Assembly (NCBI GenBank): GCA_039586795.1
Contig: JBDHJS010000001.1
Location: 48,507-112,506, forward strand
DNA length: 64,000 nucleotides
Direction of reading: 5' to 3'
Source of the DNA: Gemmatimonadota bacterium
GTDB taxonomy: Bacteria > Gemmatimonadota > Gemmatimonadetes > Palauibacterales > KS3-K002
In this document: piece after piece, positions 2,639 to 56,812 of the stretch
Position numbering within the stretch: position 1 is the first letter of the stretch
How the letters are laid out: each line of letters opens with the position of its first letter
Notes under the pieces: model-generated
The model's database searches: none
What the model was told of the DNA's origin: nothing
The model's input: only the letters and a program-made list of their open reading frames with translations
Program-made: the position numbers and the translations under genes

Positions 2639-2640
2639 GA

Positions 2641-21733: not shown

Positions 21734-21736
21734 TTG

Positions 21737-21776: not shown

Positions 21777-21803
21777 GGACGCGCAGCTGACAGTCAAAGA
21801 ACA

Positions 21804-21852
21804 GAAACGGCCGGACGTGCTTGCCGCGCGCCGGCCGTCTTCTTTCCCCCTA
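21804..21852. terminator. bidirectional rho-independent terminator candidate between convergent rho and PRT genes
   Basis: GC-rich hairpin (AAACGGCCGG...CCGGCCGT) followed by TCTTCTTTCCCCC on the plus strand and preceded by GAAACAGAAAC (T-run on the minus strand). Confidence 0.5.
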
Positions 21853-21881
21853 CTCCCTACCCTTCACCCCCTACGCCCTAC
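21846..21881 (-). repeat. right arm of inverted repeat; GTAG-repeat element 3' of the phosphoribosyltransferase gene
   Basis: CCCCCTACTCCCTACCCTTCACCCCCTACGCCC is the reverse complement of the 21737-21776 arm; abuts the stop codon at 21878. Confidence 0.55.
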
Positions 21882-22426: not shown

Positions 22427-22594
22427 GCTCGCTCCTATTGTTAGAATGAAGTCGAAGATTGCCGGTTTGTAAGAGGCCAGTCAACAGATACGAAATACCC
22501 TCCCCCTGTTGGAGCGCTCGAGCATCCACTATTTTGCAGGTGTCTTCGGTGTCTCTTCGCGACACGATCTTGTAGGGGACGGGAGAGTGGTGTT

Positions 22595-25057
22595 GTGACC
22601 AAGATCGCCAGCGCTCGACGCGAGCGCATCCTGAATCGATTCCTTGAAGAAGAGCTGCGCGAGTCGTTCATCGACTATTCGATGAGCGTGATCGTGCAAC
22701 GGGCGTTGCCAGACGCGCGCGATGGGCTTAAGCCGGTTCAACGGCGCATCCTCTACGCGATGCACGAGCTGGGGCTTGCGCCCGAGAAGGGCCACAAGAA
22801 GTGCGCGACCGTCGTTGGTGACGTGCTGGGCAAGTACCACCCGCACGGCGATGCGGCGGTATACGAGACGTTAGTGCGGATGGCGCAGCCGTTCTCGATG
22901 CGCTACATGCCGGTCGACGGCCAGGGGAACTTTGGCTCGATCGACGGCGATCCGGCGGCCGCTTATCGCTATACCGAGGCGCGGTTGGCGCCGATCGCCA
23001 CCGACCTGCTCCGCGATCTCGAAAAAGACACCGTCTCCTTCAAGCCGAATTACGACGGGCGCCTCAAAGAGCCCGAAGTGTTGCCGGCGGGCTTTCCGCA
23101 GCTCCTGGTTTGCGGAACCGACGGGATCGCGGTTGGCATGGCGACAAAGATACCGCCGCACAACCTGGGCGAGATCGCCGAAGCGGCGGCGCAGATCCTG
23201 GGGCGACCCAACACATCGATGAACAAGCTGCTCGAGATCGTGAAGGGTCCTGACTTCCCGACCGGCGCCTATATCTGGGGCCGCGAAGGGATCGAGGGTG
23301 CGTATCGGACGGGCCGCGGCCGAATCATCATGCGGGCCCGCGCTCACGTCGAGCAGGGCGCCTACGGCAAACCATCACTGGTGATCACGGAGCTGCCGTA
23401 TCAGGTGAGCAAGCAGCGCGTGATCGAGAACATCGCTGACCTGGTCCGTAAAGGCACGCTGCAAGGCGTTACCGATCTGCGCGACGAAAGCGATCGGGAC
23501 GGCGTGCGAGTGGTGTTGGAGCTGAAGCGCGACGCACAACCGAGGAAGCTGTTGGAGAAGCTCTTCACCAAGACACAACTCCAGTACACCTACGGCGTGA
23601 TCGCCCTCGCCCTGGTGAACGGTGTACCGACCCAGCTCAACTTGAAAGAAGCGCTAGAAGTCTGGATCGATCATCGTCTCGACGTAATCGTGCGCCGTTC
23701 CCGCTACAACCTGGCGAAAGCCGAGGAGCGCGCCCACATAGTCGCCGGTTTGTTGATCGCTCTCGATGACATCGACGAGGTCGTGCAGATCATCAAGTCG
23801 AGCCGCACGCCGGAGACGGCAGCGAAGAACCTGCGTTCGGCACTCAAAATCACAGCGCGTCAGGCGGCGGCCATTCTGGCGATGCGATTGAGCCAACTGA
23901 CAAATCTGGAAAGCCGCAAGCTCAAGGAAGAGCTGGCGCAACTGGAGAAGCGGATCAAAACCCTGAAAGCGCTGCTGGCCGATGAGAAGAAACGTCGCGA
24001 CCTGGTGCGCAGGGAGCTGTTGACGATCGCCGAGCGCTACGGCGACGCGCGGCGAACGGAGATACTGGAGGACGGCGGTCGTTTTCCACTGCCCAGCGGC
24101 GGCGCGGAGCAGGAAATGCACGTCTTCCTCACCCATCACGGGTACATCAAAGCGCTTCCGGCGCGGAGCGCCGACAACGACGGCGGCAGAGCCGCCGCGG
24201 AGAGCCTGGAAGCGGGTCGCAAGGATTTCGTGACCCGGCTGTGGCTCTGCAAATCGGATGAGCAACTTCTGGCGTTCACGCGCGATGGTAACGTGTACGC
24301 GTCGAAGATCGGCGATTTGCCGCAAGGTACGCGATCGTCTCGGGGCCAGAAGCTAGTGGACGTGCTGGATCTCGATGAGGAGATCGCCGCCGTCCACACG
24401 GTTCGTGATTTCGCCGCCGATCGTTACGCGGTGTTCGCGACGCGAAAGGGTCGGGTGAAACGGACGGCGCTTTCCGAGTACAAGAACATCCGGAGCGGCG
24501 GGATCATCGCCACCGGTCTAGAGAAGAAGGACGAAGTCTACGACGTCTGCATCGCCGGCGGCGGCGATCAGATCGTGATGGCCACCGTCAAAGGACAGAT
24601 GATCCGCTTCGAGGAATCAGCGATCCGGCCGATGGGTCGCTCAGCTTCTGGTGTGAAGGGGATCGAGCTGGCGAAAGGCGACAGCGTGGCGGCGATCGTC
24701 GTCCCGCGACCCGGCTCCGCCACCATAGGCGCGACCGCCGGAGGCTACGCTCGCATACTCGGACACGACGAACCCCGCGTCCAGGCCCGGGGAGGCAAGG
24801 GCGTGTTGTTCCTGCCCTCCCGCATCAAATCCGGCCCAGTCATCGGCATGCTCGACCTCTTGCCCGACGACATCGTGGTTGCCATCACCGTCTCCGGCGA
24901 CGTGATCGCCATCGACCATCACGGTGGTAATGGCGGCCAGCCCGGGAAGCCGGTGCTGCTGCCGCTGCGCGGTCGCAAACTGACCGGAATAGCCCGGGCG
25001 CCCATCTGGCGGTCGGCGCCGACTTCTGGCATCGTGCAGATGAGCCTGCAGATTTAG
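22595..25057 (+). CDS. gyrA: DNA gyrase subunit A
   Basis: GTG start with GGGAGAG RBS; catalytic Tyr motif AAAYRYTE; C-terminal beta-pinwheel with GyrA box QARGGKG; 820 aa. Confidence 0.95.
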
Positions 25058-27377: not shown

Positions 27378-27698
27378 CTATCGGGGCACGAGTTCCACGA
27401 ACACTTCCATGACCCCACCGCACACGGCGGGGCTAAATGACAGGTAGTCGTCTGTGAGATCTACGCGAACCAATTTGGGCGCGCCAGTGGCGATCACTTC
27501 CTGCGCCGCGGCCAAAACCTCCGCTTCGCCGCAGCCGCCGCCGATCGTTCCGATCAGAGTGCCGTCCCCTCCGATGAGCATCTTGCTGCCGGTATCCCGC
27601 GGTGTCGAACCTTTCACGCGGACGACTGTCGCCAGAGCGACGTTTCGGTCGGTTTCGGTCCCGGCTATGAGCGCTTCATAGATCTCGCGATCATCCAT
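27378..27698 (-). CDS. XdhC/CoxI-family N-terminal domain protein (stand-alone)
   Basis: Matches the XdhC_CoxI N-domain (ATVVRVKGSTPRDTGSKMLIGGDGTLIGTIGGGCGE) but lacks the Rossmann C-domain. Confidence 0.65.
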   Translation of the reverse strand: MDDREIYEALIAGTETDRNVALATVVRVKGSTPRDTGSKMLIGGDGTLIGTIGGGCGEAEVLAAAQEVIATGAPKLVRVDLTDDYLSFSPAVCGGVMEVFVELVPR

Positions 27699-27713
27699 GT
27701 ATCAATAGACCCC

Positions 27714-28526
27714 TCAGAGCTTGCGTTTCACCTTCTCGATCACTCGTTCTTCCCGGCTAAGTTGTCCGCCGGAACCGCCGCGCCTTACGGCCACTAGTTC
27801 AGCAGCGATGGCCAGCGCGATCTCTTCCGGCGTCTCAGCCGCGATGTCGAGACCGATCGGCGCGTGCACGCTCTCGAGGCGCGCCGGATCCACACCGTCG
27901 CCGACCAGGGCCTCGAACGCCGCGCGGACCCGTCGGCGGCTGCCGATCATGCCCAGGTACGCGGGCTCCGCTTTCATCCGTAGCAGTTCGAGTATGCAAT
28001 CGTAGTCGTACTTGTGCCCGCGAGTCACCAGAACAACGTAGCTATTTTCGCTGACGCTCAGGTCGACGAACGGCTCGCCGAAATCGATGAGCACGACTTT
28101 GGTCGCCTCGGGAAAGTGCTGTCGATCGGCATACTCAGGGCGATCATCGGCTACCGTCACCCGAAAACCGAGCAAAGCGCCGAGGCGACAGAGCGGCCGC
28201 GCGATGTGACCGGCGCCGATAATCAGTAGATCGGGGACGGCCAGCTGCGGCTCGACGTAGAGCTGCCAGGCGCCGCCTTCCATCTCGAGTTCGTGGAGTC
28301 CGCGCTCTCCGTTTGCCAGTGCATCACGGGCGAGGGCTGTCGCTCGCTCATCAGGCTCGGGCGCGCCAAGTCCGCCGTCAACGGACTGTGCGGTGACAAG
28401 GATTCGTCGGCCCACGGCGCCGGCAACTGGAGCGCTCACAACCGTGACCACGACCATCGGCTCACCCCCTTCCTGAGCCGCAAGCGCCCGGCGGGCCGCG
28501 TCTACGGCACTGACGTGTTCGCTCAC
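27714..28526 (-). CDS. xdhC: XdhC-family molybdenum cofactor insertion/maturation factor
   Basis: N-domain plus Rossmann-like C-domain (LLIIGAGHIARPLCRLGALLGFRVTVADDRPE). Confidence 0.75.
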   Translation of the reverse strand: MSEHVSAVDAARRALAAQEGGEPMVVVTVVSAPVAGAVGRRILVTAQSVDGGLGAPEPDERATALARDALANGERGLHELEMEGGAWQLYVEPQLAVPDLLIIGAGHIARPLCRLGALLGFRVTVADDRPEYADRQHFPEATKVVLIDFGEPFVDLSVSENSYVVLVTRGHKYDYDCILELLRMKAEPAYLGMIGSRRRVRAAFEALVGDGVDPARLESVHAPIGLDIAAETPEEIALAIAAELVAVRRGGSGGQLSREERVIEKVKRKL

Positions 28527-29110
28527 TAGCGATCCCTCACATAGCGGTCGTAGTCGTCGGGTGTGTCCACGTCGGCAAGTACACCTGGATCGTCGATCTC
28601 GACGCCCACCGATCGGTCCGCATGGCGGCGAACCACGGTCCGAGCGCCTTCCGGAAGATCCTCGTCGAGCAGCTCGCTGAACAGCGAGGCGTCGAAAATG
28701 ACCGGGTGGCCGTGGCGTCCCTGATGGACGGGCCTGACGATGGGCGCGCCGCCTGTCTCAAATGCCTGGATCAACGCCGTCACGGTTGCGGGCCGGACAA
28801 GCGGGTGATCGACCGGGAGGACGACGGCAGCCGCGGCGGTCTCATCCACCGCTCTCAGCCCGGCACGCAAAGAGTCGATCTGCTGGGTGCCGGAGCCTCC
28901 GCCCCAGGTGGTATGTGCGGAGCCCTCAGGAACCAGTCCGGCAATCGCCGGCTCGTCCGGGTTGAGCACGACGACCACCTGCGCGCACCCTCCTTCGACC
29001 AGCGTGCGCACAGCGCGCTGCAAGAAAGTCTCGTTGTCTACAGGCAGCGATGCCTTCGGCCGGCCCATACGCTCCGAGCGGCCGCCGGTCAGGATGATAC
29101 CGACGATCAT
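28526..29110 (-). CDS. molybdenum cofactor nucleotidyltransferase (MocA/MobA-like)
   Basis: ILTGGRSERMGRPKA nucleotide-binding motif; start overlaps the xdhC stop. Confidence 0.7.
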   Translation of the reverse strand: MIVGIILTGGRSERMGRPKASLPVDNETFLQRAVRTLVEGGCAQVVVVLNPDEPAIAGLVPEGSAHTTWGGGSGTQQIDSLRAGLRAVDETAAAAVVLPVDHPLVRPATVTALIQAFETGGAPIVRPVHQGRHGHPVIFDASLFSELLDEDLPEGARTVVRRHADRSVGVEIDDPGVLADVDTPDDYDRYVRDR

Positions 29111-33285: not shown

Positions 33286-34410
33286 GTGAGGCGCAGAGCG
33301 GTCTGGGCGGGCGTCGGTACTGCTGCGTTGGTGCTGGTTTATTTCCTGGCGTGGCCGGTGCCGATCGATCCGGTGGAGTGGGAGGCGCCGGTGAACCCGG
33401 GGTATACAGGCGCGTTTGAGGTTAACGAGAGGTTGGCGCAGGTCGAGACGTTCTCGATTGGGGATAATGTTGGGCCGGAGGCGGTGGCGGTCGATGGTGA
33501 AGGACGTGTTTACGTCTCGACGAAAGACGGGTGGATCGTGCGGTTGCAGTCGGATGGGTCAGCGGCGGAGAACTGGGCGAATACCGACGGCCGACCGCTG
33601 GGGATGGAGTTTGACGCCGCCGGCAACCTGATCGTCGCCGACGCCCATCACGGTTTGCTTTCGGTCGCGCCAGACGGAAGCGTCAGCTTGCTGGTGATGG
33701 AGGCCGACGGGATACCGATCCGTTTCGCCAACGATCTGGACGTCGCGCCCGACGGCCGGATCTACTTCACGGACTCGTCCACCAAGTTTGCGCCCATCGA
33801 TTGGGAAGGAACCACAGCGGCGGCGTTACTCGAGCTGATGGAACATGGCGGCAATGGACGCCTGCTGGTCTACGACCCCGAGATCGGGAGCGCCACGGCG
33901 GTGATCGACGGCCTCAGTTACGCCAATGGAGTCGCGGTCGCTCACGATGGATCGTTCGTGCTGGTGAACGACATGGGGAGTTACAGAGTGCTTCGCGTCT
34001 GGCTCAGAGGACCCTACACGGGATCCAGCGAACCACTCATCGAGGAGCTGCCCGGTTTCCCGGACAACCTGTCCCGTGGCCTGGACGGCCGGTACTGGGT
34101 GGCGTTCATCTCGCCGCGCAATTCGCTTGTCGACGCGCTCTCTGACAATCCATTCCTTCGCAAAGTGGTGCAGCGACTCCCCGCGTTCCTTCGACCCGCC
34201 GCGACCCACTACGGTCATATCATCGCCGTGGATCATAGCGGTCGAGTGATAGAAGACCTGCAAGACCCGAGGGGAGCGCTACCGATGATCAGCGGCGTGC
34301 GCGAGACCGAAGACTTCCTTTGGTTGGGGAATGTGGAGTCACCGGTGGTGGGACGGATCAATAAGACGCAGGTTCAATGCTGCAAAGCAGCTCTCACGGA
34401 CCACGAGTAG
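33286..34410 (+). CDS. strictosidine synthase-like / SMP-30-gluconolactonase-LRE family beta-propeller protein
   Basis: N-terminal TM/signal, repeated GPE/A.DG motifs (GPEAVAVDGEGRVY, PLGMEFDAAGNLIVADA, NDLDVAPDGRIYFTDS). Confidence 0.6.
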   Translation: MRRRAVWAGVGTAALVLVYFLAWPVPIDPVEWEAPVNPGYTGAFEVNERLAQVETFSIGDNVGPEAVAVDGEGRVYVSTKDGWIVRLQSDGSAAENWANTDGRPLGMEFDAAGNLIVADAHHGLLSVAPDGSVSLLVMEADGIPIRFANDLDVAPDGRIYFTDSSTKFAPIDWEGTTAAALLELMEHGGNGRLLVYDPEIGSATAVIDGLSYANGVAVAHDGSFVLVNDMGSYRVLRVWLRGPYTGSSEPLIEELPGFPDNLSRGLDGRYWVAFISPRNSLVDALSDNPFLRKVVQRLPAFLRPAATHYGHIIAVDHSGRVIEDLQDPRGALPMISGVRETEDFLWLGNVESPVVGRINKTQVQCCKAALTDHE

Positions 34411-34442
34411 CCTACGAAAACAAACCGCTAGGAGAACGACCG

Positions 34443-35537
34443 ATGCCCGGAATCACACGACGCTCCTTTTTCAGGAATAGCATCCTAGCTGGCGCCGGCG
34501 CCGCCGTCTGGCAGAGACTCACCCCATCCGCCCAGGCGAGCGCGCCCGCCCCGACGTTTGGCCGAAAGTCAGCCACCACGCCGATGGTCGTCACAAGCCA
34601 TCCGAACGACACCGGGCGCCGGGCGCTGGAGATCGCCTGGGAGATCCTTGCGGATGGTGGTACTGCGCTGGATGCGGTCGAGAAGGCGACGAACCACATC
34701 GAGTTGGACCCGAACGACTGGAGCGTAGGGTATGGTGGCCTTCCCAACGAGCGCGGTGTGGTACAACTCGACGCTTCGATCATGGACGGCAAAACATACA
34801 GCGCCGGATCGGTCGCATCTCTGGAGAACATCGTGCATCCATCATCGGTGGCGCGACTGGTTATGGAGCGCACCGACCACGTGATGTTGGTGGGCCCCGG
34901 CGCTCTCGAGTTCGCCACGTCCTGGGGCTTCGAGGAGCAAGAGCTGCTCACAGAACGGGCGCGGGAGCGTTGGCTGCAGTGGCGTGAAGAACACAGCGAG
35001 CGGGACGACTACGGTCCGCCCGACCATGTCAAGACGGGCAGCGACGAGCGCGGAGCTTCCCTCCCCGGTAGCGATCCCGAGACGTATGGGACGGTTAACG
35101 TGCTGGCGGTCGACAACAACGGTGATGTCGCCGGGATCACGAGCACCAGCGGTTTGTCGTGGAAGATCCACGGCCGTATCGGCGATTCGCCAATCATCGG
35201 CGCCGGTCTCTATGTGGACAACGATGTCGGCGCCGCCGGCGCCACCGGTCGCGGCGAAGACGTGATCAAGGCCTGCTCGTCGTACTACATCGTCATGCGG
35301 ATGCGTGAGGGTCGGTCACCGCAGGAGGCGTGCGAAGACGCGCTCCACTACATCGCCGACCGCTACCGGTCGGTGGGGCTGGACTACCTCCCGGGCGAGA
35401 AGTTCGTGGCAATGAACCGGGACGGCGAGGTAGGCTGCGCCCAGACGTTCGGGCGGAATGCCCCGAGGATGACGGTGGCAGGCGGATCCGGGATCGAGGT
35501 TTATTCCGGGGAGACGGTCTTCAGCCGGGAAGACTGA
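34443..35537 (+). CDS. Tat-exported asparaginase-2 family Ntn hydrolase (isoaspartyl peptidase/glycosylasparaginase-like)
   Basis: Twin-arginine signal (TRRSFFRNSILAGAGAAVW) from the ATG at 34443 with AGGAGAA RBS; Ntn-hydrolase motifs GTVNVLAVDNNGDVAGITSTSG and GAGLYVDNDVGAAGATGRGE. Confidence 0.75.
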   Translation: MPGITRRSFFRNSILAGAGAAVWQRLTPSAQASAPAPTFGRKSATTPMVVTSHPNDTGRRALEIAWEILADGGTALDAVEKATNHIELDPNDWSVGYGGLPNERGVVQLDASIMDGKTYSAGSVASLENIVHPSSVARLVMERTDHVMLVGPGALEFATSWGFEEQELLTERARERWLQWREEHSERDDYGPPDHVKTGSDERGASLPGSDPETYGTVNVLAVDNNGDVAGITSTSGLSWKIHGRIGDSPIIGAGLYVDNDVGAAGATGRGEDVIKACSSYYIVMRMREGRSPQEACEDALHYIADRYRSVGLDYLPGEKFVAMNRDGEVGCAQTFGRNAPRMTVAGGSGIEVYSGETVFSRED

Positions 35538-35539
35538 TG

Positions 35540-35610
35540 ATTCGGGGATTCGCTCAGCCAATCGCCGAAGCCGCGAATCTGGTGACCCCCGAATCGCTCC
35601 AATCCCTCCG
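35540..35610. repeat. CGAATCCCC/GGGGATTCG motif cluster (ATTCGGGGATTCGC ... CCCCCGAATCGC)
   Basis: Same motif family as 18546-18592, 46262-46402 and 60420-60460. Confidence 0.4.
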
Positions 35611-35660
35611 AGTAGACGTGGCGGGCCGTATATAGTTATATTTAGATATAGGCATTATAA

Positions 35661-35900
35661 ATGACAGTAACCCATAGAGAGATAAACACTTTGCCTACAT
35701 ACGATTACGTTTGCCTTGAGTGTGGCCGGCAGTTCGACGTGAGGGCCTCGATTTCCGCCTACTCGGCCGGTCTTTCGCCCCACTGCCCGGACTGTGGATC
35801 GGACAACGCGGATCGGAGGTTCTCCTCAGTGAACGTGCTCACGGGGTCGCAGGAGTCGGCAGGCTCGCCGCCGAATTGCGGTCCATCGGGCTTCAGTTGA
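35661..35900 (+). CDS. FmdB-family zinc-ribbon putative regulatory protein
   Basis: LPTYDYVCLECG...CPDCGS: the FmdB N-terminus (M-P-T-Y-x-Y-x-C-x-x-CG); the real start is probably the TTG at 35691 (GAGAG RBS), the ATG at 35661 being an upstream alternative. Confidence 0.65.
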   Translation: MTVTHREINTLPTYDYVCLECGRQFDVRASISAYSAGLSPHCPDCGSDNADRRFSSVNVLTGSQESAGSPPNCGPSGFS

Positions 35901-36179
35901 GTGAACTGAAGCCGCCCAGGTTGGGCGGAGATCGAGCATGTCACGGGTCAGCCCTGTGGCTGGCCCGTCGTGCATCTGCGATGCGGCGCCGGGGTAGTTG
36001 GATCTCAGCCTCGTGTGAGGTATCCTATTAGCATCATCAGTCGCGCTGACCGAGCTGTTCCGTAGCCCATCACCGAGGTGGGCGGCTTGGGAAAGAGCAG
36101 CCGCCGCTCCAGACTCCGAACTCAAAGGCGAGCAGACCAAGGTGCGGGCAAGCGCACGAGTGGCCGTCGGAGGTTCAGA

Positions 36180-36551
36180 ATGCCGATAGAGACGCGGATC
36201 GACTCAGCCGCGGGCTTGAGGACGCACATAGTCAGCGGAGAGATGGACTTTGACGCTCTCTCTTCCACGCTCGAGGGCGTCTATTCGGACCCGGACTTTC
36301 TTCCCGACCTCAACGTGTTGTGGGATCTTCGAGACGCGATCCTGACGGTGTTTTCTTCCGGGGACGTCAGCCGAGTTGTTGACGTGGTGAAGGGGAACTG
36401 GACGGGGGCCCGGGCGGCGCTTGTGGTTGGGCGCGACGCCGACTTTGGAATGGCACGAATGTACGAGCTGCAGCACGATACATCGTCATCGGGCGAAGTG
36501 CGTGTGTTCCGAGATTTCGAAGAGGCGACGGCATGGGTAATGGAGAAGTAG
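36180..36551 (+). CDS. small protein of unknown function, paralog A (possible divergent STAS/anti-sigma-antagonist-like fold)
   Basis: Start at internal Met with GGAGG RBS (MPIETRID); homologous to 36992..37414 along its whole length; C-terminal GMARMYEL...VRVFRDFEEATAWV. Confidence 0.55.
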   Translation: MPIETRIDSAAGLRTHIVSGEMDFDALSSTLEGVYSDPDFLPDLNVLWDLRDAILTVFSSGDVSRVVDVVKGNWTGARAALVVGRDADFGMARMYELQHDTSSSGEVRVFRDFEEATAWVMEK

Positions 36552-36991
36552 CTCGGATGCGCAGTTTCCGTCTTCTTGCACTCGTTCCAGTATCGCTATT
36601 CCTGTTCGGCGTGCCAGCGATCTTCTCCAAACAACAGCTCAACCGCTCACGCACCACTCAGATGCAAGGATCGACGATTGGCGTACGATGAGAAGCTAGC
36701 TCAACGGATCCGGGACGTTCTCGGTGACCGGAGGCCTGATCTACAGAGTACGGCCAGTCAAACGTCGAGCGAGCGACGAACGTCACCCACGAGATGGCAA
36801 ACGCGAGGCCGAGGTAAAGCCAAACCTGTTTGGAGATACGGTCTTCCTCTTTGATCATCGCTCGTACGTGAAAACGGACGACTGGCGTTCCCGCCGCTCG
36901 AATCTCCCTGCTGCTTGACGCTAAGCTCAAGCTCGGCTTACGATTATGGGTTAATATGACCTGCCGGCGCCATCCATAGGACGCCGATCGG

Positions 36992-37414
36992 TTGACTCGA
37001 AAGCCCCAGGATACGAGCGGAAGCACTGTGCCGTTCAGTTACGAGATTGACAGGGGCCGCGACTTCGTCTCGATAGTCGCAAGCGGCAAGATCACGACCG
37101 AAGAAGCGTTGGCGACTTTCGACGCGATCGTCGGTGAACCCGGCTTTCATCCCGGAATGAAGATCCTGAGCGATCACCGGGACCTGGAGACGGTAGTACC
37201 GATAGCGTTCATAAAGGCGTGGATCAGCCGTATCGAGGAGGCCGGCAAGCTGTTTCGGGGGACGCGGGCGGCGCTGGTCGAGTCGGGGACCGTGAGATAC
37301 GGAATGGCGCGCATGGCATCGATTCTCACAGAGCCGACGGCGATCGAGATGCGCGTGTTTCGCGACGTCGAGGAAGCCCGGAACTGGCTCGAGTCACCGG
37401 CGGTCTTGTTATAA
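36992..37414 (+). CDS. small protein of unknown function, paralog B
   Basis: Shares a clear collinear motif pattern with paralog A (..IVASG.., GMARMASI...MRVFRDVEEARNWL); stop overlaps the RBS of the molybdoenzyme small subunit. Confidence 0.55.
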   Translation: MTRKPQDTSGSTVPFSYEIDRGRDFVSIVASGKITTEEALATFDAIVGEPGFHPGMKILSDHRDLETVVPIAFIKAWISRIEEAGKLFRGTRAALVESGTVRYGMARMASILTEPTAIEMRVFRDVEEARNWLESPAVLL

Positions 37415-37425
37415 GAGGCATCGAT

Positions 37426-37920
37426 TTGATCGAGGCTATAGAACTTACGGTAAACGGAGATACCCGCGAGCTTGGCGTCCCGAGTCATTACACGCTCCTC
37501 GAGACGCTGCGCTATGTGCTGGGGTACACCGGATCCAAACAAGGCTGTGACAAGGGCGACTGCGGAGCCTGCACGGTACTGCTGGACGGAGTACCCACCC
37601 TCTCCTGCATACTCCCAGTCCAGGAAGCGATCGGAAGAGAGATCACAACGATCGAGGGACTAGCAGAAGCCGACGGGCTTCACCCGCTTCAGGATTTCTT
37701 TGATGTCACAGGCGGTGCGCAGTGCGGGTTCTGTACGTCTGGAATCATCATGTCGGCGGCGGCCTTGTTGTCGGAGAACGACGATCCAACGCGAGATGAG
37801 ATTCGGGCGGCGCTGTCCGGGAATCTGTGTCGCTGCACGGGTTACACGAAGATCTTCGAGGCCATCGAGCTAGCCGCGCGCTCGCTACGTGAGAGCGCGG
37901 CGGAGAGTGTGGAATCGTGA
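37426..37920 (+). CDS. (2Fe-2S)-binding small subunit of xanthine dehydrogenase-family molybdoenzyme (CoxS/HcrC-like)
   Basis: CDKGDCGACTV plant-type and CGFCTSG...CRCTGY second 2Fe-2S motifs; TTG start at 37426 with AAGAGG RBS (the in-frame upstream part of the track ORF is unlikely to be translated). Confidence 0.85.
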   Translation: MIEAIELTVNGDTRELGVPSHYTLLETLRYVLGYTGSKQGCDKGDCGACTVLLDGVPTLSCILPVQEAIGREITTIEGLAEADGLHPLQDFFDVTGGAQCGFCTSGIIMSAAALLSENDDPTRDEIRAALSGNLCRCTGYTKIFEAIELAARSLRESAAESVES

Positions 37921-40349
37921 AGCTTGAGGACTTCCGTGAGAGGCAAGCGGCGGCCGCGCTGAGCGAGGAAGAAATCCGCGCAGCCGTCGAGCGCGAGTTC
38001 CAGGTGATCGGGCGTCGACTGCGCCGAACCGATGGCATCGCCAAGTCCACGGGACGAGCAGTCTACACTGACGACATCACACTCCCTGGGATGCTGCACG
38101 GCAAGATCCTGCGCAGCCCTCACGCACACGCCCGTATCATGTCCATCGACGTATCGAGAGCCCTGCAGCTCGAGGGCGTGCACGCGGTGATCACCGGCAG
38201 CGACATGCCAGAACTTTACGGGATCATTCCGTGGTCACGGGACGAATACGCGCTGTGCGTAGACGTGGTGCGTTACATCGGCGACGGGGTGGCGGCGGTA
38301 GCGGCCATCGACGAAGAGACGGCGAACGCGGCGCTCGACCTAATCGAAGTGGAGTACGAGGTCCTTCCCCACTTTCTGGATCCGAAAGAAGCGCTAACGA
38401 ACGCGGATACGCCGATCCACGAGCCGAAGAAGCCGGGCGAGAACGGGAACATCTCGAAGCGTGTGCAGCTGGAGTTCGGCAGCGTCGATGCGAAGATGGC
38501 GGCGTCGGATGTAGTGGTCAAAGACGATTACTTCTTCGAAGGAACGACGCACACGGCGATCGAACCGCACTGCGCCATCGGCTATTGCGACGCAGGCGGC
38601 AAACTGACGGTTTGGTCGGCCACTCAGGTACCGCACTACCTGCACCGCGAGCTGGCGCGAGTGCTCGATCTGGATGTCGCCAAGGTCAGGGTCGTGCAGC
38701 CACCCATCGGTGGGGCGTTCGGCGGCAAATCGGAGCCGTTCGACCTGGAGTTCTGCGTAGCGAAGCTGGCGATGATCACCGGCCGCCCGGTGAAGATCCT
38801 TTATACTCGCGAGGAGGTATTCTACGCTCACCGCGGTCGGCACCCGATGTTCATGCGTTACGAGACCGGGGCCGACGCCAACGGACGAATCAAGGCCGTG
38901 CACGCGCGGACGATTCTGGACGGTGGCGCCTACTCCTCGTTCGGCCTGGTCACGACGTACTACTCGGGACAGTTGATCACGGCGCCGTACGCGATGGAGT
39001 CGTACCGATTCGACTCGATCCGAGTTTACACGAACAAGCCGTGCTGCGGGCCGAAGCGAGGGCACGGGTCGGTGCAGCCGCGGTTCGCGATCGAGGTCCA
39101 GCTGGACAAGATCGCCGAACAGCTCGAGATGGATCCGATCGAACTTCGTCGTCGCAACATCATCGGCTCGGGCTCGCGGACCGTGAACGAGTTTCGCATC
39201 ACGTCCAACGGCTTCGCGGAGTGTCTGGCCGAAGTCGAGAAAGCATCGGACTGGAAGAACAAGCACCGACGTTTGCCTTACGGCCGCGGCGTAGGCGTCG
39301 CCGGCTCGTGCTACATCTCCGGAACCAACTATCCGATCTACCCCAACGAAATGCCGCAGTCTGCAGTCCAGCTGCAGGTCGACCGGTCGGGGAGGGTCGC
39401 TGTGTTCAGTGGCGCATCCGAGATCGGCCAGGGCTCCGACTCGATGCTCGCCTACATCGTGTCAGAGGAACTGGGTGTTCCCCTCGACTACGTTCGAATA
39501 CTGTCGGCGGACACCGATCTGACGCCCGTGGATCTGGGCGCCTACTCGTCGCGGGTCACGTTCATGAACGGCAACGCTTGCATCGACGCGGCCCGCAAGA
39601 TCAAGACGCAAGTACAGCAAGCGGTTGCCGATCAATGGCTCTGCAAGCCCAAGCATGTGATGCTGGTGGGCGGCTGGGCGTTCTACGGCCTGGACACCGA
39701 GACAAAGATGCCGATCTCGGAGGCGTTCAACCTGGCCGAGGCGAAATACGGCGCCCTGGGCGCTACCGGGTCCTATAACACGCCGAAGGATATCCACGGC
39801 GAGTATCGGGGCGGGACGATCGGCTCGTCGCCGGCGTACTCCTTCACGGCCCACGTGGCCGAAGTGGAGGTCGATCCGGAGACCGGATTCGTCGAGGTGC
39901 AGAAGATCTGGATCGCCCACGATTGCGGCCGGGCGCTGAACCCGGTGCTGGTGGAAGGCCAGATGGAAGGCTCGGCCTACATGGGCTTTGCCGAGGCGAT
40001 CATGGAGGCGCATGTCTTCAAGGAGACGGGTCTGCACAACGCGCCTTCGCTGCTCGACTACAAGATCCCGACCAGCCTGGACACACCCGAGATGCGCTCG
40101 CTCATCGTCGAGTCGATCGATCCAGAGGGCCCCTACGGGGCAAAGGAAGCAGGGGAAGGCCCGCTGCATCCGTCCATACCGGCTATCGCGAACGCGATCT
40201 ACGATGCGGTGGGCGTGCGCATGGACCGCATGCCGTTCGCACCGCCAGCCGTCTGGAAGGCGATACGAGCACGCGCCGAACGGGAGCGCTCAGGTGGTTT
40301 GACGCCGTGGAAGAGAGACGACGCGTCTCTCGCAGCGGCGGGAGATTAG
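37917..40349 (+). CDS. molybdopterin-binding large subunit of xanthine dehydrogenase-family enzyme (CoxL/HcrA-like)
   Basis: GTG start overlapping the upstream stop (GTGA); GGAFGGK motif (PPIGGAFGGKSEPFD) and XDH-family domain order; 810 aa. Confidence 0.9.
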   Translation: MKLEDFRERQAAAALSEEEIRAAVEREFQVIGRRLRRTDGIAKSTGRAVYTDDITLPGMLHGKILRSPHAHARIMSIDVSRALQLEGVHAVITGSDMPELYGIIPWSRDEYALCVDVVRYIGDGVAAVAAIDEETANAALDLIEVEYEVLPHFLDPKEALTNADTPIHEPKKPGENGNISKRVQLEFGSVDAKMAASDVVVKDDYFFEGTTHTAIEPHCAIGYCDAGGKLTVWSATQVPHYLHRELARVLDLDVAKVRVVQPPIGGAFGGKSEPFDLEFCVAKLAMITGRPVKILYTREEVFYAHRGRHPMFMRYETGADANGRIKAVHARTILDGGAYSSFGLVTTYYSGQLITAPYAMESYRFDSIRVYTNKPCCGPKRGHGSVQPRFAIEVQLDKIAEQLEMDPIELRRRNIIGSGSRTVNEFRITSNGFAECLAEVEKASDWKNKHRRLPYGRGVGVAGSCYISGTNYPIYPNEMPQSAVQLQVDRSGRVAVFSGASEIGQGSDSMLAYIVSEELGVPLDYVRILSADTDLTPVDLGAYSSRVTFMNGNACIDAARKIKTQVQQAVADQWLCKPKHVMLVGGWAFYGLDTETKMPISEAFNLAEAKYGALGATGSYNTPKDIHGEYRGGTIGSSPAYSFTAHVAEVEVDPETGFVEVQKIWIAHDCGRALNPVLVEGQMEGSAYMGFAEAIMEAHVFKETGLHNAPSLLDYKIPTSLDTPEMRSLIVESIDPEGPYGAKEAGEGPLHPSIPAIANAIYDAVGVRMDRMPFAPPAVWKAIRARAERERSGGLTPWKRDDASLAAAGD

Positions 40350-40353
40350 CATC

Positions 40354-41358
40354 GTGCTCAGGCTCCACCCTTATCACTACCATCGCCCGGCCACCCTGAA
40401 GGAGGCCCTGGGTCTGCTGAAGCAGCACACCGGCGATGTGATGGCGATCGCGGGTGGCACGGACCTGGTCCCCAACATGAAGCACAGGCTCTTCACGCCC
40501 AGCCACCTTGTCGCGTTGAAAGACCTCGCGGAGCTTCAGGGGATCGAAGAGCGGGACGGTGAACTGGTCATTGGCGCCGCGGAGAGCCTGACCAGCGTGG
40601 CGACGCATCCGCTGGTGAAGAAGCACCTCCCCGCGCTGGCGGATGCCGCCGCCGCCATAGCCCATCCGATGATTCGCAATCAGGGCACGATCGGCGGCAA
40701 CATCTGCCTGGACACGCGGTGCACGTACTACAACCAGACGCATTTCTGGCGAAAGGCGCTGGGATACTGCCTGAAGAAGGACGGCGACGTCTGCCACGTG
40801 GTGAAGGGTGGCACCAAGTGCGTCGCCGCGCACTCGGCGGACACACCGCCGATCCTCATGGCGTTGGGCGCATCGATCGACATCGCCTCGGCGGATCGGG
40901 AGCGGAAGTTGCCGCTGGAAAGTTTCTTTGTCGCTGATGGTATTTGGAACAAAATGATGGCGCAGTACGAGCTAGTGACTCGCGTTCGCGTACCTCTCCC
41001 GCCGCCAGGGCAGCGTGCGGTCTATGTGAAGGTTCGGGAGCGCAATGCAGTGGACTTCCCGCTACTCAGCATCGGGTTGGCGGTCGAACTGGACGAGACC
41101 GACTCGTTGGCGCAGAGAATCTCGCTGGTAGTCGCCGCGCTTGGCGCCAAGCCTCGGGTCATCGGCGGCCTCGACAAGATCACGGACGGAAAGAAGCTCA
41201 CGTCTGATGTGATCGAGGAGATCGCACAACAGGCGTTCCGTCAGTGCAATCCCCTCGAGAATATCATCGTCGAGCTGGAGTGGCGGCGCGCTATGGTTCC
41301 GGTCTATGTGCGCCGCGCTTTCAAGCAGCTGCTCGCTCAGCCGCGGGCCGTCGCGTAG
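40354..41358 (+). CDS. FAD-binding medium subunit of XDH-family molybdoenzyme with Cys-rich insertion (HcrB-like putative [4Fe-4S] loop)
   Basis: AGGTDL FAD motif; insertion CLDTRCTYYNQTHFWRKALGYCLKKDGDVCHVVKGGTKC containing C-x16-C-x8-C-x9-C; GTG start with GGAGA RBS. Confidence 0.85.
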   Translation: MLRLHPYHYHRPATLKEALGLLKQHTGDVMAIAGGTDLVPNMKHRLFTPSHLVALKDLAELQGIEERDGELVIGAAESLTSVATHPLVKKHLPALADAAAAIAHPMIRNQGTIGGNICLDTRCTYYNQTHFWRKALGYCLKKDGDVCHVVKGGTKCVAAHSADTPPILMALGASIDIASADRERKLPLESFFVADGIWNKMMAQYELVTRVRVPLPPPGQRAVYVKVRERNAVDFPLLSIGLAVELDETDSLAQRISLVVAALGAKPRVIGGLDKITDGKKLTSDVIEEIAQQAFRQCNPLENIIVELEWRRAMVPVYVRRAFKQLLAQPRAVA

Positions 41359-42348
41359 CTAGCCCCCGACGACGGACTCCGCGAAGATCTCGACCGGCTC
41401 GACTATCGCATCCATCGGACTGAACTTCCATACTAGCACTTCGTCATCGCGTTCGTGCGCGTTCGACGTGATGATCCGACCCGGCATCCTCAGCCGGAAA
41501 TGGATCTCCGTGCTGCCCGCAACGTTCAGACCGTCCAGCTTGTCATCGATGAAGTCGCCAAGCCTGTCCGCCTCGTCATCGTAGATCTCGGCGAGCATGG
41601 CCCTGAGGAATTCTTCATCAGCGTCCGGGTAGCTGCGGCGCACGATGCGGGTCGCCTGCCTGGCTGTCCGGTCGACAACCTGCTCGAGCATCCGATCCTC
41701 CTCCTCGCCGCTGAGCTCGAATAGGCCCTGGTCGATAGCGGCCCACGCCTGCCCTCTAGCAGTACCTATGATCTCAGCGACGGCCTCATCCGAGAGATCC
41801 GGGTATTCCGTCACGACTCGCGCTTCGACGAGGCTCATCATGTATTCGACGAGAGCATCGAGGGCGTTCTCCCATTCGAAGCTCTCTCGATAGGTGAATG
41901 ACGTCGCGTCGCCGACACGGCCTGTCTCGACCTTTACCGTGTTCCAGAAGTGAACTTCGCCCAGCCTGACGTACCCGACTTTCGTGTCTACGTTGGCCCT
42001 GGTGGCGCCGGCAAAGTGCATGCTACGAGTGACATCTTCCCAGCCGGACAGGTTCCTGACACGAGTCTGGCGTGTGAACACCTCGGTGGTGTCCGTGCCG
42101 TCCACTTCGATCTCGTGGGCCCAACCGCGCTGGCCCGTGACGACACCCGTGACTTCTTGAAACTCGCCGATCGAGATTTCGAATCCCGGGCTGTCGGCAT
42201 CTGAAACAACCATCTTCTCGCTGCGAACACCACTGCCATCGGCATTCAGGGTGGTCTCTACCGTGTACTCGATGCAGCCGCCCAAGCCGAAGGCCGCAAA
42301 CGCCAACCCGGCAAGACCGACACGTTTTCCGCTCTTTATCCACTTCAT
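41359..42348 (-). CDS. hypothetical lipoprotein downstream of the ECF sigma/anti-sigma pair
   Basis: Start at internal Met (MKWIKSGKRV) with GAGGTGA RBS, verified as CAT at 42346-42348; lipobox GLGGC. Confidence 0.55.
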   Translation of the reverse strand: MKWIKSGKRVGLAGLAFAAFGLGGCIEYTVETTLNADGSGVRSEKMVVSDADSPGFEISIGEFQEVTGVVTGQRGWAHEIEVDGTDTTEVFTRQTRVRNLSGWEDVTRSMHFAGATRANVDTKVGYVRLGEVHFWNTVKVETGRVGDATSFTYRESFEWENALDALVEYMMSLVEARVVTEYPDLSDEAVAEIIGTARGQAWAAIDQGLFELSGEEEDRMLEQVVDRTARQATRIVRRSYPDADEEFLRAMLAEIYDDEADRLGDFIDDKLDGLNVAGSTEIHFRLRMPGRIITSNAHERDDEVLVWKFSPMDAIVEPVEIFAESVVGG

Positions 42349-42386
42349 GGTCCTCACCTCTCTATGACCAGTACACTCTCGACGTC

Positions 42387-43169
42387 TCACGACCGGACGC
42401 TTGCATCAGATAGCGCAAGCAGTCGAGCCACGGGAATCTGCAACTCTGGATCGAGCGCCAGGGCGTCCAGCAGACGAACCAACTCTGCCACCTGCACACC
42501 ATCCGCACCGCGCAGCTCATCCAGTGCTGTACTCCGGCCGGCAAGCGCCCAGAAAGGGGCACCTGCGAGCAGGCTTTCCAGCCTGGCAGCATCGACGATG
42601 GTCGTGCTGGGAGGCAACCGCTCCAGCATGCTAATCAGTTCAGCGACGCTCACGCTTTCGCGCCGGGAAAGCGTACGCTCCCACGCTCTTCGCCCCACCA
42701 ACCCGGTCGCCACGGACGATGTTGTGACCTCCAGGCTGGCGAGCCGCTGCTCGTGCTCGGCAATTCGTTGCACGAGGAGCTCTTCGCGTCCACGCAGCTC
42801 GCCCAGCTCACCGAGCAAGAAGCCAGTGGCGACAAGGAGCAGCACGGAAGCGGCGGCGAGGGACGGTGCCAACCAGCGCGATGATCCCCAGCCTCGCGGG
42901 CGCGTGATATGTCGTGCCTCCTGAATCGCGATCTCGGCCTGAACCGAATCCCACATCGACGCTACATAGACATCGGGCACCTCCACCTCGAGATCCTCTA
43001 GAGACGGCAAGGCGAGGTGTTCGTGCATGCGCAGAATCGCGTCGCACTCGACGCAGGCCTCGGCGTGAAGCTGAAGCTGGGCCATGCCGTCCTCGCCAAG
43101 TCTTCCCTGTTTGAGCGAGTCCAGCTGGTCCTGGAAAACCTCACAGTCGATGTTCTTCTTCACGTTCAA
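42387..43169 (-). CDS. membrane anti-sigma factor (zinc-finger HxxxCxxC type)
   Basis: HAEACVECDAIL zinc motif, central TM (AAASVLLLVATGFLL); start overlaps the stop of the sigma gene by 4 nt. Confidence 0.65.
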   Translation of the reverse strand: MNVKKNIDCEVFQDQLDSLKQGRLGEDGMAQLQLHAEACVECDAILRMHEHLALPSLEDLEVEVPDVYVASMWDSVQAEIAIQEARHITRPRGWGSSRWLAPSLAAASVLLLVATGFLLGELGELRGREELLVQRIAEHEQRLASLEVTTSSVATGLVGRRAWERTLSRRESVSVAELISMLERLPPSTTIVDAARLESLLAGAPFWALAGRSTALDELRGADGVQVAELVRLLDALALDPELQIPVARLLALSDASVRS

Positions 43170-43792
43170 TTCTCCGTGCTGCTGAGCGCCGCGGCCAGCC
43201 GCTTGCGCGCGAAATGTAGCGTTGCCCTGAGCGTGCCATTCTTGATTCCGAGCTCGCGCGCCACGTCCTTCTGCTCTCTCTGCTCCATATCAACCCTCAC
43301 GAAAACCTGGCGCTGGCTCTCGCTCAACTCGTCGAGCGCGACCAACAGGCGCTGGTGGAACTCGCGACGCTCGAGCTCCTCTTCTGGCCCAATATCTACG
43401 GAGGCGATCTCAAGTATGCCCATTTGCTCGTCATCGTTGGGGGTCATTTCGCGTTTGACCCAAGCTTTGCGCAGGTGACTGAGACAGCCGTTCCGGTGGA
43501 CGGTGAGGAGCCAGCCGCGGAAGGAGCGATCCGGGTCGTAGCTGTCGATCCGGCTGTGGACCCTGACCCACGTTTCCTGTGTCAGGTCGCGTGCCCACTC
43601 CCAATCCGCGGTGTAGCGGTAGGCGACGGCGATCAGCGTCCGGGTCAGCGACTCGACCAGGGTCCGAAATGCCCGCTGATCTCCGCCCTTCACGGCTACC
43701 GCGAGTGCTCTCAGCTGCTTCTCGTCCAAGCGCGATTTCCTCCGTCGTATTCGCGCCAATGCGCTTCCTCTTGGTATACGCAACAACCACAA
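43166..43792 (-). CDS. RNA polymerase sigma-70 factor, ECF subfamily
   Basis: Region 2 (DLTQETWVRVH) and region 4 HTH (QRQVFVRVDMEQREQKDVARELGIKNGTLRATLHFARKRL). Confidence 0.85.
   Translation of the reverse strand: MWLLRIPRGSALARIRRRKSRLDEKQLRALAVAVKGGDQRAFRTLVESLTRTLIAVAYRYTADWEWARDLTQETWVRVHSRIDSYDPDRSFRGWLLTVHRNGCLSHLRKAWVKREMTPNDDEQMGILEIASVDIGPEEELERREFHQRLLVALDELSESQRQVFVRVDMEQREQKDVARELGIKNGTLRATLHFARKRLAAALSSTEN

Positions 43793-54390: not shown

Positions 54391-56808
<2,418 letters not shown>

Positions 56809-56812
<4 letters not shown>

Follow-up and report, generated by a model that had tools for sequence, protein, structure and literature searches.

The region between fmdB and the molybdoenzyme genes appears to be a place where two ordinary transcription units meet in a variable spot of the chromosome, and the 1.8-kb stretch is probably not one system (we put the probability of this reading at roughly 0.6). 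The first unit would consist of fmdB and probably parA, and the second of parB followed by the enzyme genes S, L, and M. The DNA comes from a Gemmatimonadota bacterium (GCA_039586795.1, contig JBDHJS010000001.1, positions 48,507-112,506 of the forward strand), and these 64,000 nt are called the window here. Promoter calls are consensus matches, and the support from conservation comes from 2-5 related sequences. The features of the region are as follows; L numbers designate related loci.

35613..35655, + strand: P1, promoter-like site; TAGACG at 35613-35618, 18-nt spacer, TATATT at 35637-35642, near-palindromic core TATATTTAGATATAGGCAT at 35637-35655
35691..35900, + strand: fmdB, 69-aa FmdB-family zinc-ribbon protein (CxxC...CxxC) with a TTG start; PF09723, TIGR02605
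35912-35928 and 35936-35973, + strand: two GC-rich hairpins 3' of fmdB, stems conserved in L008
36180..36551, + strand: parA, 123-aa single-domain protein of predicted STAS/SpoIIAA fold, 'LWDLR' subfamily; GGAGG ribosome binding site (RBS) 8 nt upstream
36558..36692, + strand: 44-aa hydrophobic micro-ORF, probable signal-peptide stub of a secreted-protein gene
36678..36731, + strand: TfoX_N stub, first 18 codons only (LAYDEKLAQRIRDVLGDR), from its match to the intact L010 gene
36736..36858, - strand: Rce1-like/CPBP protease stub, start and about 41-44 codons (first TM helix), from L010 homology
36915..36965, + strand: P2, promoter-like site of parB-S-L-M; TTGACG at 36915-36920, 18-nt spacer, TACGAT at 36939-36944, conserved box TGACCTGCC at 36957-36965
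37028..37414, + strand: parB, 128-aa single-domain protein of predicted STAS/SpoIIAA fold, 'LSDHR' subfamily; GTG as start codon, leading cistron of the operon
37412..37428, + strand: parB/S junction; TAA stop at 37412-37414 overlapping the AAGAGG RBS at 37413-37418, 7 nt before TTG 37426
37426..41358, + strand: S (2Fe-2S subunit, 37426-37920), L (37917-40349), and M (40354-41358), xanthine dehydrogenase family molybdoenzyme of the 4-hydroxybenzoyl-CoA reductase (4-HBCR) type

All sequence features described in an earlier note on this DNA are present. What does not hold is its picture of a tandem pair of paralogs jointly leading into the molybdoenzyme operon. parA lies in the separate upstream unit, and in relatives the two genes are not adjacent: several genes, some of them on the opposite strand, stand between parA and parB, or the two are on different contigs. 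As a block, the arrangement FmdB-A-B-S-L-M is not conserved; only sub-blocks of it are, and only in close relatives. parB alone belongs to the molybdoenzyme operon, and this in a narrow lineage only.

The AT-rich island reported to precede an FmdB-family gene was borne out both by a GC scan of the 64 kb and by matches to PF09723 and TIGR02605 above their cut-offs. The string quoted for it begins at 35629. Over 40 nt the GC content drops to 0.20, where the window averages 0.624 (sd 0.072); this is the lowest value in the 64 kb, unmatched by any other stretch of 40, 70, or 100 nt. The P1 hexamers and the 19-nt core are retained in L008 despite divergence of the surrounding intergenic DNA, and the window contains no second copy of the core (chance expectation 0.01 matches). 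P1 thus has the features of a putative sigma-70-like promoter ahead of fmdB. A horizontally acquired AT-rich islet was also considered and rejected: low GC is confined to about 40 nt, and the core is conserved, promoter-like, and unique in the window.

The fmdB product is an ordinary member of its family with no notable difference from it. It scores 51 bits against PF09723 (cut-off 34.4; E = 1.4e-13) and 52.4 bits against TIGR02605 (cut-off 31.3; E = 4.2e-14), and it shares the two CxxC pairs (CLEC and CPDC in the translation) and the typical M-P-x-Y-x-Y-x-C-x-x-C-G start. Translation likely begins at TTG 35691 rather than ATG 35661 because the Pfam profile begins at the same residue, and because L008 has GTG at the homologous codon and an in-frame stop just upstream. 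The L008 orthologue is 81% identical, with a dN/dS of 0.115. Downstream of the gene, both hairpin stems are kept in L008, with changes in the loops and in one stem base (two sequences compared). Folding of the 133-nt hairpin region gives z = -2.46, a value that 4 of 200 shuffles also reached; it has no reading frame conserved in L008 and no Rfam match. The hairpins are possibly an attenuator or a processing site between fmdB and parA. A consensus scan of 35400-37600 gave P1 and P2 as the only sigma-70-like matches, thus none between fmdB and parA, and it gave no terminator-like sites in the region. P1 would then drive fmdB, and transcription would probably read through both hairpins into parA. 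Co-transcription of fmdB and parA is a guess; the hairpins could terminate transcription instead.

Upstream of the second unit the genes vary among the window, L006, L007, L010, and L001, yet both P2 hexamers are identical in all five. The same architecture immediately precedes S in L034/L048, which are devoid of parB; similar sites are present in L033 and L035. P2 would drive parB, S, L, and M. No significant structure was obtained for the parB 5'UTR (z = +0.7), nor any Rfam match. An Rfam search at E <= 1 over 35400-37600 returned zero matches, and a riboswitch upstream of the operon, whether for Moco or of another kind, was therefore rejected.

It had been claimed that the parB stop codon lies within the RBS of S and that both paralogs are consequently co-expressed with the enzyme. 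The overlap is read directly from the sequence, and parB is tightly joined to S in relatives behind a conserved promoter; the claim is not supported for parA, which belongs to the separate upstream unit. parB immediately precedes S in L001/L002, L006, L007, and L010, with a 4-nt overlap in L007, L010, and L001, and a short gap in L006, as in the window. Being the first cistron, parB would be co-produced with the enzyme in members of this lineage.

The enzyme resembles HcrCAB of Thauera aromatica (PDB 1rm6) in its gamma-alpha-beta subunit order and in the Cys-rich insert of the FAD (beta) subunit, which holds an additional [4Fe-4S] cluster. The best NCBIfam models for S, L, and M are 4-HBCR gamma, alpha, and beta, respectively, and all three proteins score below the equivalog cut-offs (180.6 against 257.8, 864.8 against 994.55, and 273.3 against 404.55). 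M aligns to 1rm6_B with E = 4e-54, gapless across the insert CLDTRCTYYNQ...GYCLKKDGDVCHVV...KCVA, and the cysteines are conserved.

parA and parB are homologous, as had been proposed (32% identity, E = 3e-17), and the shared GMARM...VFRD..EA..W signature is real; it is moreover family-wide. Paralog B had been given as 140 aa. The 128-aa version starting at GTG 37028 is more likely than the TTG version because homologues start M/V-P-F, the DNA upstream has indels of lengths not divisible by three, and the gene is publicly annotated with 128 aa. A recent tandem duplication was rejected as the origin of the pair: identity is only 32%, far closer homologues of each exist elsewhere, and the two are non-adjacent in relatives. 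To judge from their sequences, they are old paralogues. With dN/dS values of 0.13-0.18 for parA and 0.13-0.15 for parB, both genes, like fmdB, are under purifying selection and are real genes.

The guess of a STAS fold turned out right: both proteins are modelled confidently as STAS/SpoIIAA folds (predicted structures, Foldseek). The best Foldseek match of each is 2q3l, with a SpoIIAA-like alpha/beta fold; the parB model has a pLDDT of 84 and matches at E = 3.3e-5. parB matches PF11964 with 32.2 bits (gathering threshold 25; E = 1.8e-7) over profile positions 2-106 of 106, whereas parA reaches 16.5 bits (E = 0.014) over the C-terminal half only, and about half of the sampled relatives are likewise below the Pfam threshold. 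PF11964 is matched at E < 0.01 by 24 of 49 sampled family members. Relatives number 16,036 cluster representatives at E <= 1e-3 and 6,037 at E <= 1e-10 (clusters at 50% identity). The family is a very large uncharacterised divergent branch of Pfam PF11964/DUF3478. Every member checked by name in cluster look-ups is annotated 'hypothetical protein'. NCBIfam has no family for parA or parB, Pfam STAS and STAS_2 are unmatched by parA, parB, and 49 relatives, a profile of the family alignment found no significant relative among PDB sequences, and a literature search on PF11964 found nothing.

The nearest structural comparison is with the DUF3478 proteins of Shewanella (YP_749275.1 and YP_001095227.1; PDB 2ook and 2q3l), which have been proposed to be membrane-associating carriers of small non-polar ligands such as flavins and quinones (PMC2954212). 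Size (about 125 aa), single-domain organization, and alpha/beta fold are shared. Of the conserved clusters described by Kumar et al., the second comprises Ala/Gly in beta4, Phe in beta5, and Ala-x-x-Trp-Leu in alpha4 (PMC2954212). When matched by secondary-structure element, it is present in the parA/parB family as A80 (99%), F110 (99%), A116 (99%), W119 (99%), and L120 (80%), and the G-x-L-T at beta2/alpha1 is present as G20-x-L-T23. The switch-region cluster includes His6, Gly27-x-Leu-Thr-His, Tyr34, and AAWDD in alpha2, with His31 also listed (PMC2954212). Its residues His6, His31, Tyr34, and AAWDD are not conserved in the parA/parB branch, which has its own invariant residues instead: D49, R51, and (F/Y)GMARM. 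From the secondary-structure positions, the probable binding face would be formed by D49, R51, and (F/Y)GMARM at the end of beta3 and the start of alpha3. parA and parB would most likely work as other STAS modules without phosphorylation do, by reversible binding of either a partner protein or a small hydrophobic ligand.

How the two units came together may be read from the spacer between parA and parB. It had been described as a low-GC spacer of 440 bp; it measures 476 bp (36552-37027) and is low in GC only mildly (0.563). L010 has the intact order: a lipoprotein gene and TfoX_N come first, followed by CPBP and NHL-TPR genes, both on the opposite strand, and finally by parB. In L001 an intact TfoX_N gene lies directly upstream of the parB orthologue. 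The TfoX_N stub shares 61% identity (E = 2e-6) with the beginning of the intact gene in L010, whose 109-aa product matches PF04993 at 1.3e-18. The CPBP stub is 53% identical over 38 aa (E = 2e-10) to residues 7-44 of a 268-aa L010 protein, in which PF02517 matches residues 128-221, a region missing from the window stub. The minus-strand 66-aa ORF that holds this stub runs from ATG 36858 down to 36658 and continues through the antisense of the TfoX stub. L006 has the same CPBP stub with an in-frame stop, and the segment 36660-36740 is wholly absent from it. Pfam finds no TfoX_N or CPBP match among the spacer ORFs because the stubs are too short, and neither gene retains an intact domain-length frame there. 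Their homology is visible only against the intact genes of related contigs. The public annotation lists the 44-aa micro-ORF as a gene. The micro-ORF occupies the position of the gene that follows parA in L008 and matches it weakly (9 of 15 residues, E = 0.002); it is unlike the L006 lipoprotein and has no Pfam match. It is probably the signal-peptide stub of that secreted-protein gene. On comparison with these contigs, the spacer is a deletion scar. About 1.06 kb (relative to L010) would have been lost between TfoX_N codon 18 and codon 44 of the convergent CPBP gene, and parA and parB would have become neighbours through deletions that left two 5' stubs and a probable signal-peptide stub.

The spacer ORFs had previously been taken as possible small-protein genes. 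The ORFs exist, and both are open in the window with a hydrophobic helix each, the 44-aa one with public annotation besides. That they are real genes, and the spacer a source of functional small membrane proteins or an sRNA, is scarcely credible all the same: the 66-aa ORF is homologous only to a short N-terminal part of a protease and its tail is antisense TfoX, the L006 copy is interrupted by a stop and lacks part of the segment, the 44-aa ORF has no conserved counterpart save the weak signal-peptide match, and Pfam and Rfam are negative. A phosphorylatable anti-sigma-factor antagonist is another way to read parA, and perhaps the wider family, possibly one that feeds a nearby ECF sigma/anti-sigma module. 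SpoIIAA, RsbV, RsbS, and RsfB share the STAS fold with the paralogs, and Ser59 and Ser60 of parA stand at the N-terminus of the predicted alpha2 helix (60-71), a likeness of position in predicted secondary structure only. In the SpoIIAA structures, the phospho-serine Ser58 sits at this place. Among 154 family members this position is S in 46%, T in 29%, D in 8%, and P in 5% (S/T 75%); a Ser/Thr kinase gene precedes one parB homologue, and an ECF sigma operon is convergent to the enzyme operon. It is noteworthy that S, T, D, and P are also typical helix-capping residues. The idea of a phospho-serine loop does not extend to paralog B: Pro58 occupies the canonical site, ahead of the alpha2 helix at 59-71, so parB would not be switchable by serine phosphorylation there, and its 58-60% identical homologues have Asp. 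Nor is there a relation to SpoIIAA at the level of sequence. hhalign of the family against B. subtilis SpoIIAA found no similarity (probability 0.09), the Pfam STAS models are unmatched, and the conserved motifs differ from those of SpoIIAA/RsbV-type antagonists. No cognate kinase/anti-sigma or PP2C gene lies nearby: Pfam annotations from about 10.5 to 58.4 kb of the window (about 48 kb) contain no SpoIIAB/RsbW-type HATPase_c and no PP2C, and the sole HATPase_c belongs to GyrB. The putative anti-sigma beside the neighbouring ECF sigma gene (260 aa) is unmatched in Pfam and thus does not resemble a kinase-type anti-sigma. Altogether, an antagonist role for parA is very unlikely.

With regard to the enzyme, parB most likely derives from a general Gemmatimonadota gene, as a copy that has moved to this place, rather than being a core or obligatory component. 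Operons with an 82-85% identical L subunit (L033, L034/L048, and L035) begin directly with S and have no parB, and homologues of parB occur in unrelated contexts: downstream of nadE in five MAGs (50-57% identical), downstream of a NAGPA gene (58-60%), and downstream of a Pkinase-TPR gene (65%). These neighbourhoods come from a sample of about 30 family loci, and all named ones are Gemmatimonadota. The opposite reading makes parB a genuine accessory that serves the 4-HBCR-type enzyme in this lineage. It would have been recruited to a place between S and the promoter of the operon, and it would act as a STAS/SEC14-like carrier of the hydrophobic aromatic substrate or as a tethering or regulating adaptor. 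This reading is favoured by the place of parB as first cistron behind the ancestral promoter of the operon, by a parB stop that lies in the S RBS or overlaps S by 4 nt in five contigs diverged to dS 0.8-1.8, by the low dN/dS of parB, and by the ligand-carrier role proposed for DUF3478 proteins (PMC2954212). The MlaFEDB ABC transporter complex is reported to contain MlaB, a component with a STAS domain (PMC7367683); as a bound regulatory subunit, MlaB would exemplify the kind of binding-partner mechanism suggested for parB, with a resemblance in fold and concept only. The sister operons and the unrelated contexts speak against the accessory role. So does the confinement of the linkage to one shallow clade, in which it may persist simply by descent, and a text search of the literature turned up neither a xanthine-dehydrogenase-family operon reported to have a STAS-fold cistron nor a paper mentioning both a STAS domain and that family. 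We regard a role of parB as an accessory as possible, if rather unlikely, next to its reading as a relocated general gene. The tight parB/S junction, its retention on five contigs at dS > 1, and the purifying selection have the look expected of a real functional link, so parB may yet be enzyme-specific.

Taken by itself, the region is of small intrinsic importance: ordinary promoters, an ordinary FmdB gene, a catalogued fold family, and pseudogene debris. Its spacer is a clear caution for small-protein discovery pipelines, in that hydrophobic micro-ORFs can be 5' stubs of deleted genes. The operon of parB and the 4-HBCR-type enzyme is one of few places where a member of the (F/Y)GMARM branch is tightly coupled to an assayable enzyme, and a functional test is therefore possible in this clade. 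It is unlikely that parB is the first STAS/SEC14-like single-domain working partner of a xanthine-dehydrogenase-family enzyme, whether by carrying a substrate or ligand, by tethering the enzyme to a membrane, or as its allosteric adaptor. If it were, the pairing of parB with the enzyme would provide the first functional handle on about 16,000 uncharacterised sequence clusters.

The interval between the Asparaginase_2 gene and the molybdoenzyme operon of the xanthine dehydrogenase family is made up of ordinary parts, namely two predicted promoters, an FmdB gene, pseudogene stubs and two genes (parA and parB) from a fold family that is known but uncharacterised. The window, which groups with Gemmatimonadota, matches contig JBDHIY010000008.1 of NCBI assembly GCA_039587195.1 (JGI sample 3300041024). 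The earlier note had observed this interval correctly, and its interpretation was right in part. The elements are as follows.

34377-35537, + strand: Asparaginase_2 gene, first in order
153-bp gap before fmdB, + strand: contains the AT-rich island, ~35629-35670
35613-35642: P1, promoter-like site within the AT-rich island, TAGACG-18-TATATT
From 35691 (likely start), + strand: fmdB, followed by a 279-bp gap
36180-36551, + strand: parA, followed by a 476-bp spacer
36678-36731, + strand: TfoX_N stub, first 18 codons
36858-36736, - strand: CPBP stub, start codon and ~41 codons
36915-36944: P2, promoter-like site with a sigma-70-like match, TTGACG-18-TACGAT
37028-37414, + strand: parB
37426-37920, 37917-40349 and 40354-41358, + strand: S (2Fe-2S subunit), L and M, the enzyme subunit genes

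The AT-rich island is as striking as had been described: GC falls to 0.20 in its lowest 40 nt, the window averaging 0.624, and a GC scan of the window found no second such stretch in 64 kb. The gene that follows is indeed an FmdB zinc-ribbon gene, exceeding both the PF09723 and TIGR02605 cut-offs. It likely starts at TTG 35691 (69 aa), since the Pfam profile begins there and the related contig L008 has GTG at the same codon and a stop just upstream. The dN/dS values of fmdB (0.115), parA (0.13-0.18) and parB (0.13-0.15) are low against orthologues diverged to dS ~0.8-1.8; therefore, all three are taken to be real genes.

P1 and P2 are the sole sigma-70-like matches in a consensus scan of 35400-37600. 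Both hexamers of P1 and a 19-nt near-palindromic core, TATATTTAGATATAGGCAT (35637-35655), are identical in L008, whereas the flanking intergenic DNA differs. The core occurs once in the window and extends past the -10 hexamer; such conservation beyond the -10 points to an operator or to an element at the start site. Both hexamers of P2 and a downstream box, TGACCTGCC (36957-36965, ~13-16 nt 3' of the -10 element of this operon promoter), are invariant in the window and in contigs L006, L007, L010 and L001, whichever gene lies upstream. All five parB-containing contigs have the box and the parB-less operon of L034 lacks it; it could mark a start site or serve as an operator. A riboswitch before parB is unlikely, since the 5'UTR is without significant structure or Rfam match. 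Two GC-rich hairpins lie directly 3' of fmdB (35912-35973; folding z = -2.46). In the two sequences compared, L008 retains both hairpins, with changes in the loops and in a stem base. The window and L008 share no reading frame across this stretch, and Rfam gives no match; the hairpins might act as a terminator or attenuator lacking a U-tract, or stabilise the RNA.

The spacer between parA and parB is only mildly low in GC (0.563), and its content identifies it as a deletion scar. The comparison is with L010, a Gemmatimonadota MAG (parB 75% identical to that of the window), which has four genes upstream of parB: one for a lipoprotein, an intact 109-aa TfoX_N gene, a convergent gene for a 268-aa Rce1-like/CPBP protease, and an NHL-TPR gene. 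The window retains the beginnings of the TfoX_N gene (E = 2e-6 against the L010 gene) and of the CPBP gene (E = 2e-10 against the L010 protein), separated by 4 nt; measured on L010, it has lost ~1.06 kb between TfoX codon 19 and CPBP codon 45, along with the NHL-TPR gene. The 66-aa single-membrane-span ORF that had been proposed on the minus strand is the CPBP stub, its frame continuing through antisense TfoX sequence. L006 (parB 83% identical) has this CPBP stub as well, there with a stop in frame, and lacks the TfoX piece. The proposed 44-aa micro-ORF on the plus strand is probably also a stub, less certainly than the other two: it starts 7 nt 3' of parA, at the place of a longer secreted-protein gene in L008, and matches that gene weakly and in the signal peptide only (E = 0.002). 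It has no match to the L006 lipoprotein.

A conserved arrangement running from FmdB through both paralogs to S-L-M had been suggested for checking; it does not hold, as the Asparaginase_2-to-S interval differs in every relative and is a variable spot. For example, L001 has DUF1232, TfoX_N and parB; L008 has fmdB, parA and a secreted-protein gene; L006 has a lipoprotein gene, the CPBP stub and parB; and L024 has parA 12 nt 3' of the asparaginase gene, without fmdB. L024 and L010 belong to one MAG, so that genome has parA on one contig and parB on another. The two genes thus come from two old subfamilies ('LWDLR' and 'LSDHR', respectively) and became neighbours secondarily, by deletion.

The two proteins are homologous, as claimed (32% identity, E = 3e-17). 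The size given for parA (123 aa) stands; that for parB (140 aa, from TTG 36992) does not, the most likely start being GTG 37028 (128 aa). The idea of a STAS fold is borne out by confident AlphaFold2 models built on 21-sequence alignments (pLDDT 84.2 and 86.0, pTM 0.80), both of which run beta-beta-alpha-beta-alpha-beta-alpha-beta-alpha, the order of STAS domains. parB matches PF11964 (SpoIIAA-like, formerly DUF3478) above threshold and parA matches it weakly. In a 49-member family sample, half match PF11964 and a few match DUF7793. An exhaustive profile search gave 16,036 cluster representatives at E <= 1e-3, of which 6,037 reach E <= 1e-10; nearly all of the best 150 of the 16,036 matches are stand-alone proteins of ~125 aa. 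The source names looked up for family members are all 'hypothetical protein', and the named lineages among relatives of the two proteins are Gemmatimonadota MAGs in 17 of 17 cases (species-representative genomes). Near-invariant residues are, in parA numbering, D49, R51, A80, (F/Y)89-G-M-A-R-M94, F110, A116 and W119. The A in beta4, the F in beta5, the A..WL in alpha4 and a G-x-L-T motif correspond, by secondary-structure element, to reported conserved clusters of DUF3478, whereas the His, Tyr and AAWDD residues of its 'switch-region' are not found in this family (PMC2954212). DUF3478 proteins have been proposed to carry small non-polar ligands or to act at membranes (PMC2954212). Close pairs of family members occur in other genomes too: L023, a single 2.8-kb contig, carries two parA-type copies (45-416 and 2043-2423; 44-45% identical to parA) flanking a gene of ~600 aa.

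The likeness drawn between a parA segment, DLRDAILTVFSSGDV, and the phospho-serine loop of anti-sigma-factor antagonists fares less well. S59 and S60 sit at the N-terminal end of helix alpha2 as predicted, which is where the SpoIIAA structures have Ser58. Of 154 family members, 75% have S or T in the alpha2-start column and most of the rest D or P, with Pro in parB and Asp in its 58-60% homologues; S, T, D and P are also the usual helix-capping residues. Alignment by hhalign to SpoIIAA (sequence identical to 1auz) found no sequence relation (probability 0.09), Pfam STAS models match neither parA, parB nor the 49-member sample, and genes for an RsbW/SpoIIAB-type kinase or a PP2C phosphatase are absent from window positions ~10.5-58.4 kb. 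Together these exclude a phospho-switch at the canonical site of parB, and one at S59/S60 of parA is unsupported. Contig L030 encodes a 716-aa Hanks-type Ser/Thr kinase with TPR repeats (1437-4027); 63 nt downstream is a 65%-identical parB homologue with Thr-Pro at the start of helix alpha2.

As had been read, the parB stop codon (TAA) overlaps the AAGAGG ribosome-binding site of S, and we infer that parB is co-expressed with S-L-M here. The best matches of S, L and M are the gamma, alpha and beta subunits of 4-hydroxybenzoyl-CoA reductase (4-HBCR), all three below the NCBIfam equivalog cut-offs. M, the FAD subunit, aligns with the Thauera enzyme (1rm6_B, E = 4e-54) through the Cys-rich [4Fe-4S] insert, whose cysteines are conserved. 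S-L-M is thus assigned, by similarity below equivalog cut-offs, as a 4-HBCR-type enzyme in a Gemmatimonadota MAG. Genes for XdhC_CoxI, XdhC_C and NTP_transf_3 (MocA-like) domains lie ~8 kb upstream of the operon (~27378-29110, - strand) and likely encode its molybdenum-cofactor maturation factors. Convergent to the operon (41359-43792, - strand) are an ECF sigma gene and genes of 260 and 343 aa without Pfam matches. The latter two also adjoin the operon in L001, L007, L010 and L033, and the sigma gene does so in L001; in the window this group is followed by another ECF sigma gene and one for a PDZ-domain protein. The window also holds rho, gyrA, gyrB, dciA and a recF-like SMC_N gene (~20471-25057 and 54391-57939), so the region may be near the chromosomal replication origin.

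A further question is whether parB serves this enzyme. A parB orthologue (69-83% identical) stands directly before S in L001/L002, L006, L007 and L010, with a 4-nt overlap or a short gap as in the window, which would fit an accessory of the 4-HBCR-type enzyme. Nevertheless, scanning metagenomes with the L subunit turned up operons (L033, L034/L048 and L035; L 82-85% identical) that begin with S and have no parB. L034/L048 carries the same CTTGACG-N17-GGTTACGAT promoter ~115 nt before S, so only in this clade does parB sit between the ancestral operon promoter and S. Elsewhere, parB-type homologues at 50-57% identity come straight after the gene for glutamine-dependent NAD synthetase (CN_hydrolase and NAD_synthase) in five Gemmatimonadota MAGs (L012, L015, L017, L018 and L026, ~5.7-8.4 kb in each), the most recurrent neighbour of the subfamily among the loci looked at. 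Homologues at 58-60% lie 3' of an NAGPA gene, and one at 65% lies 3' of a Pkinase-TPR gene. An accessory role is therefore regarded as unlikely, though it is the main rival; that parB is a general Gemmatimonadota STAS-fold gene, present here as a relocated copy, is more likely than that it is a subunit dedicated to the enzyme. The sole lead singled out for testing is a possible interaction of parB with the 4-HBCR-type enzyme.
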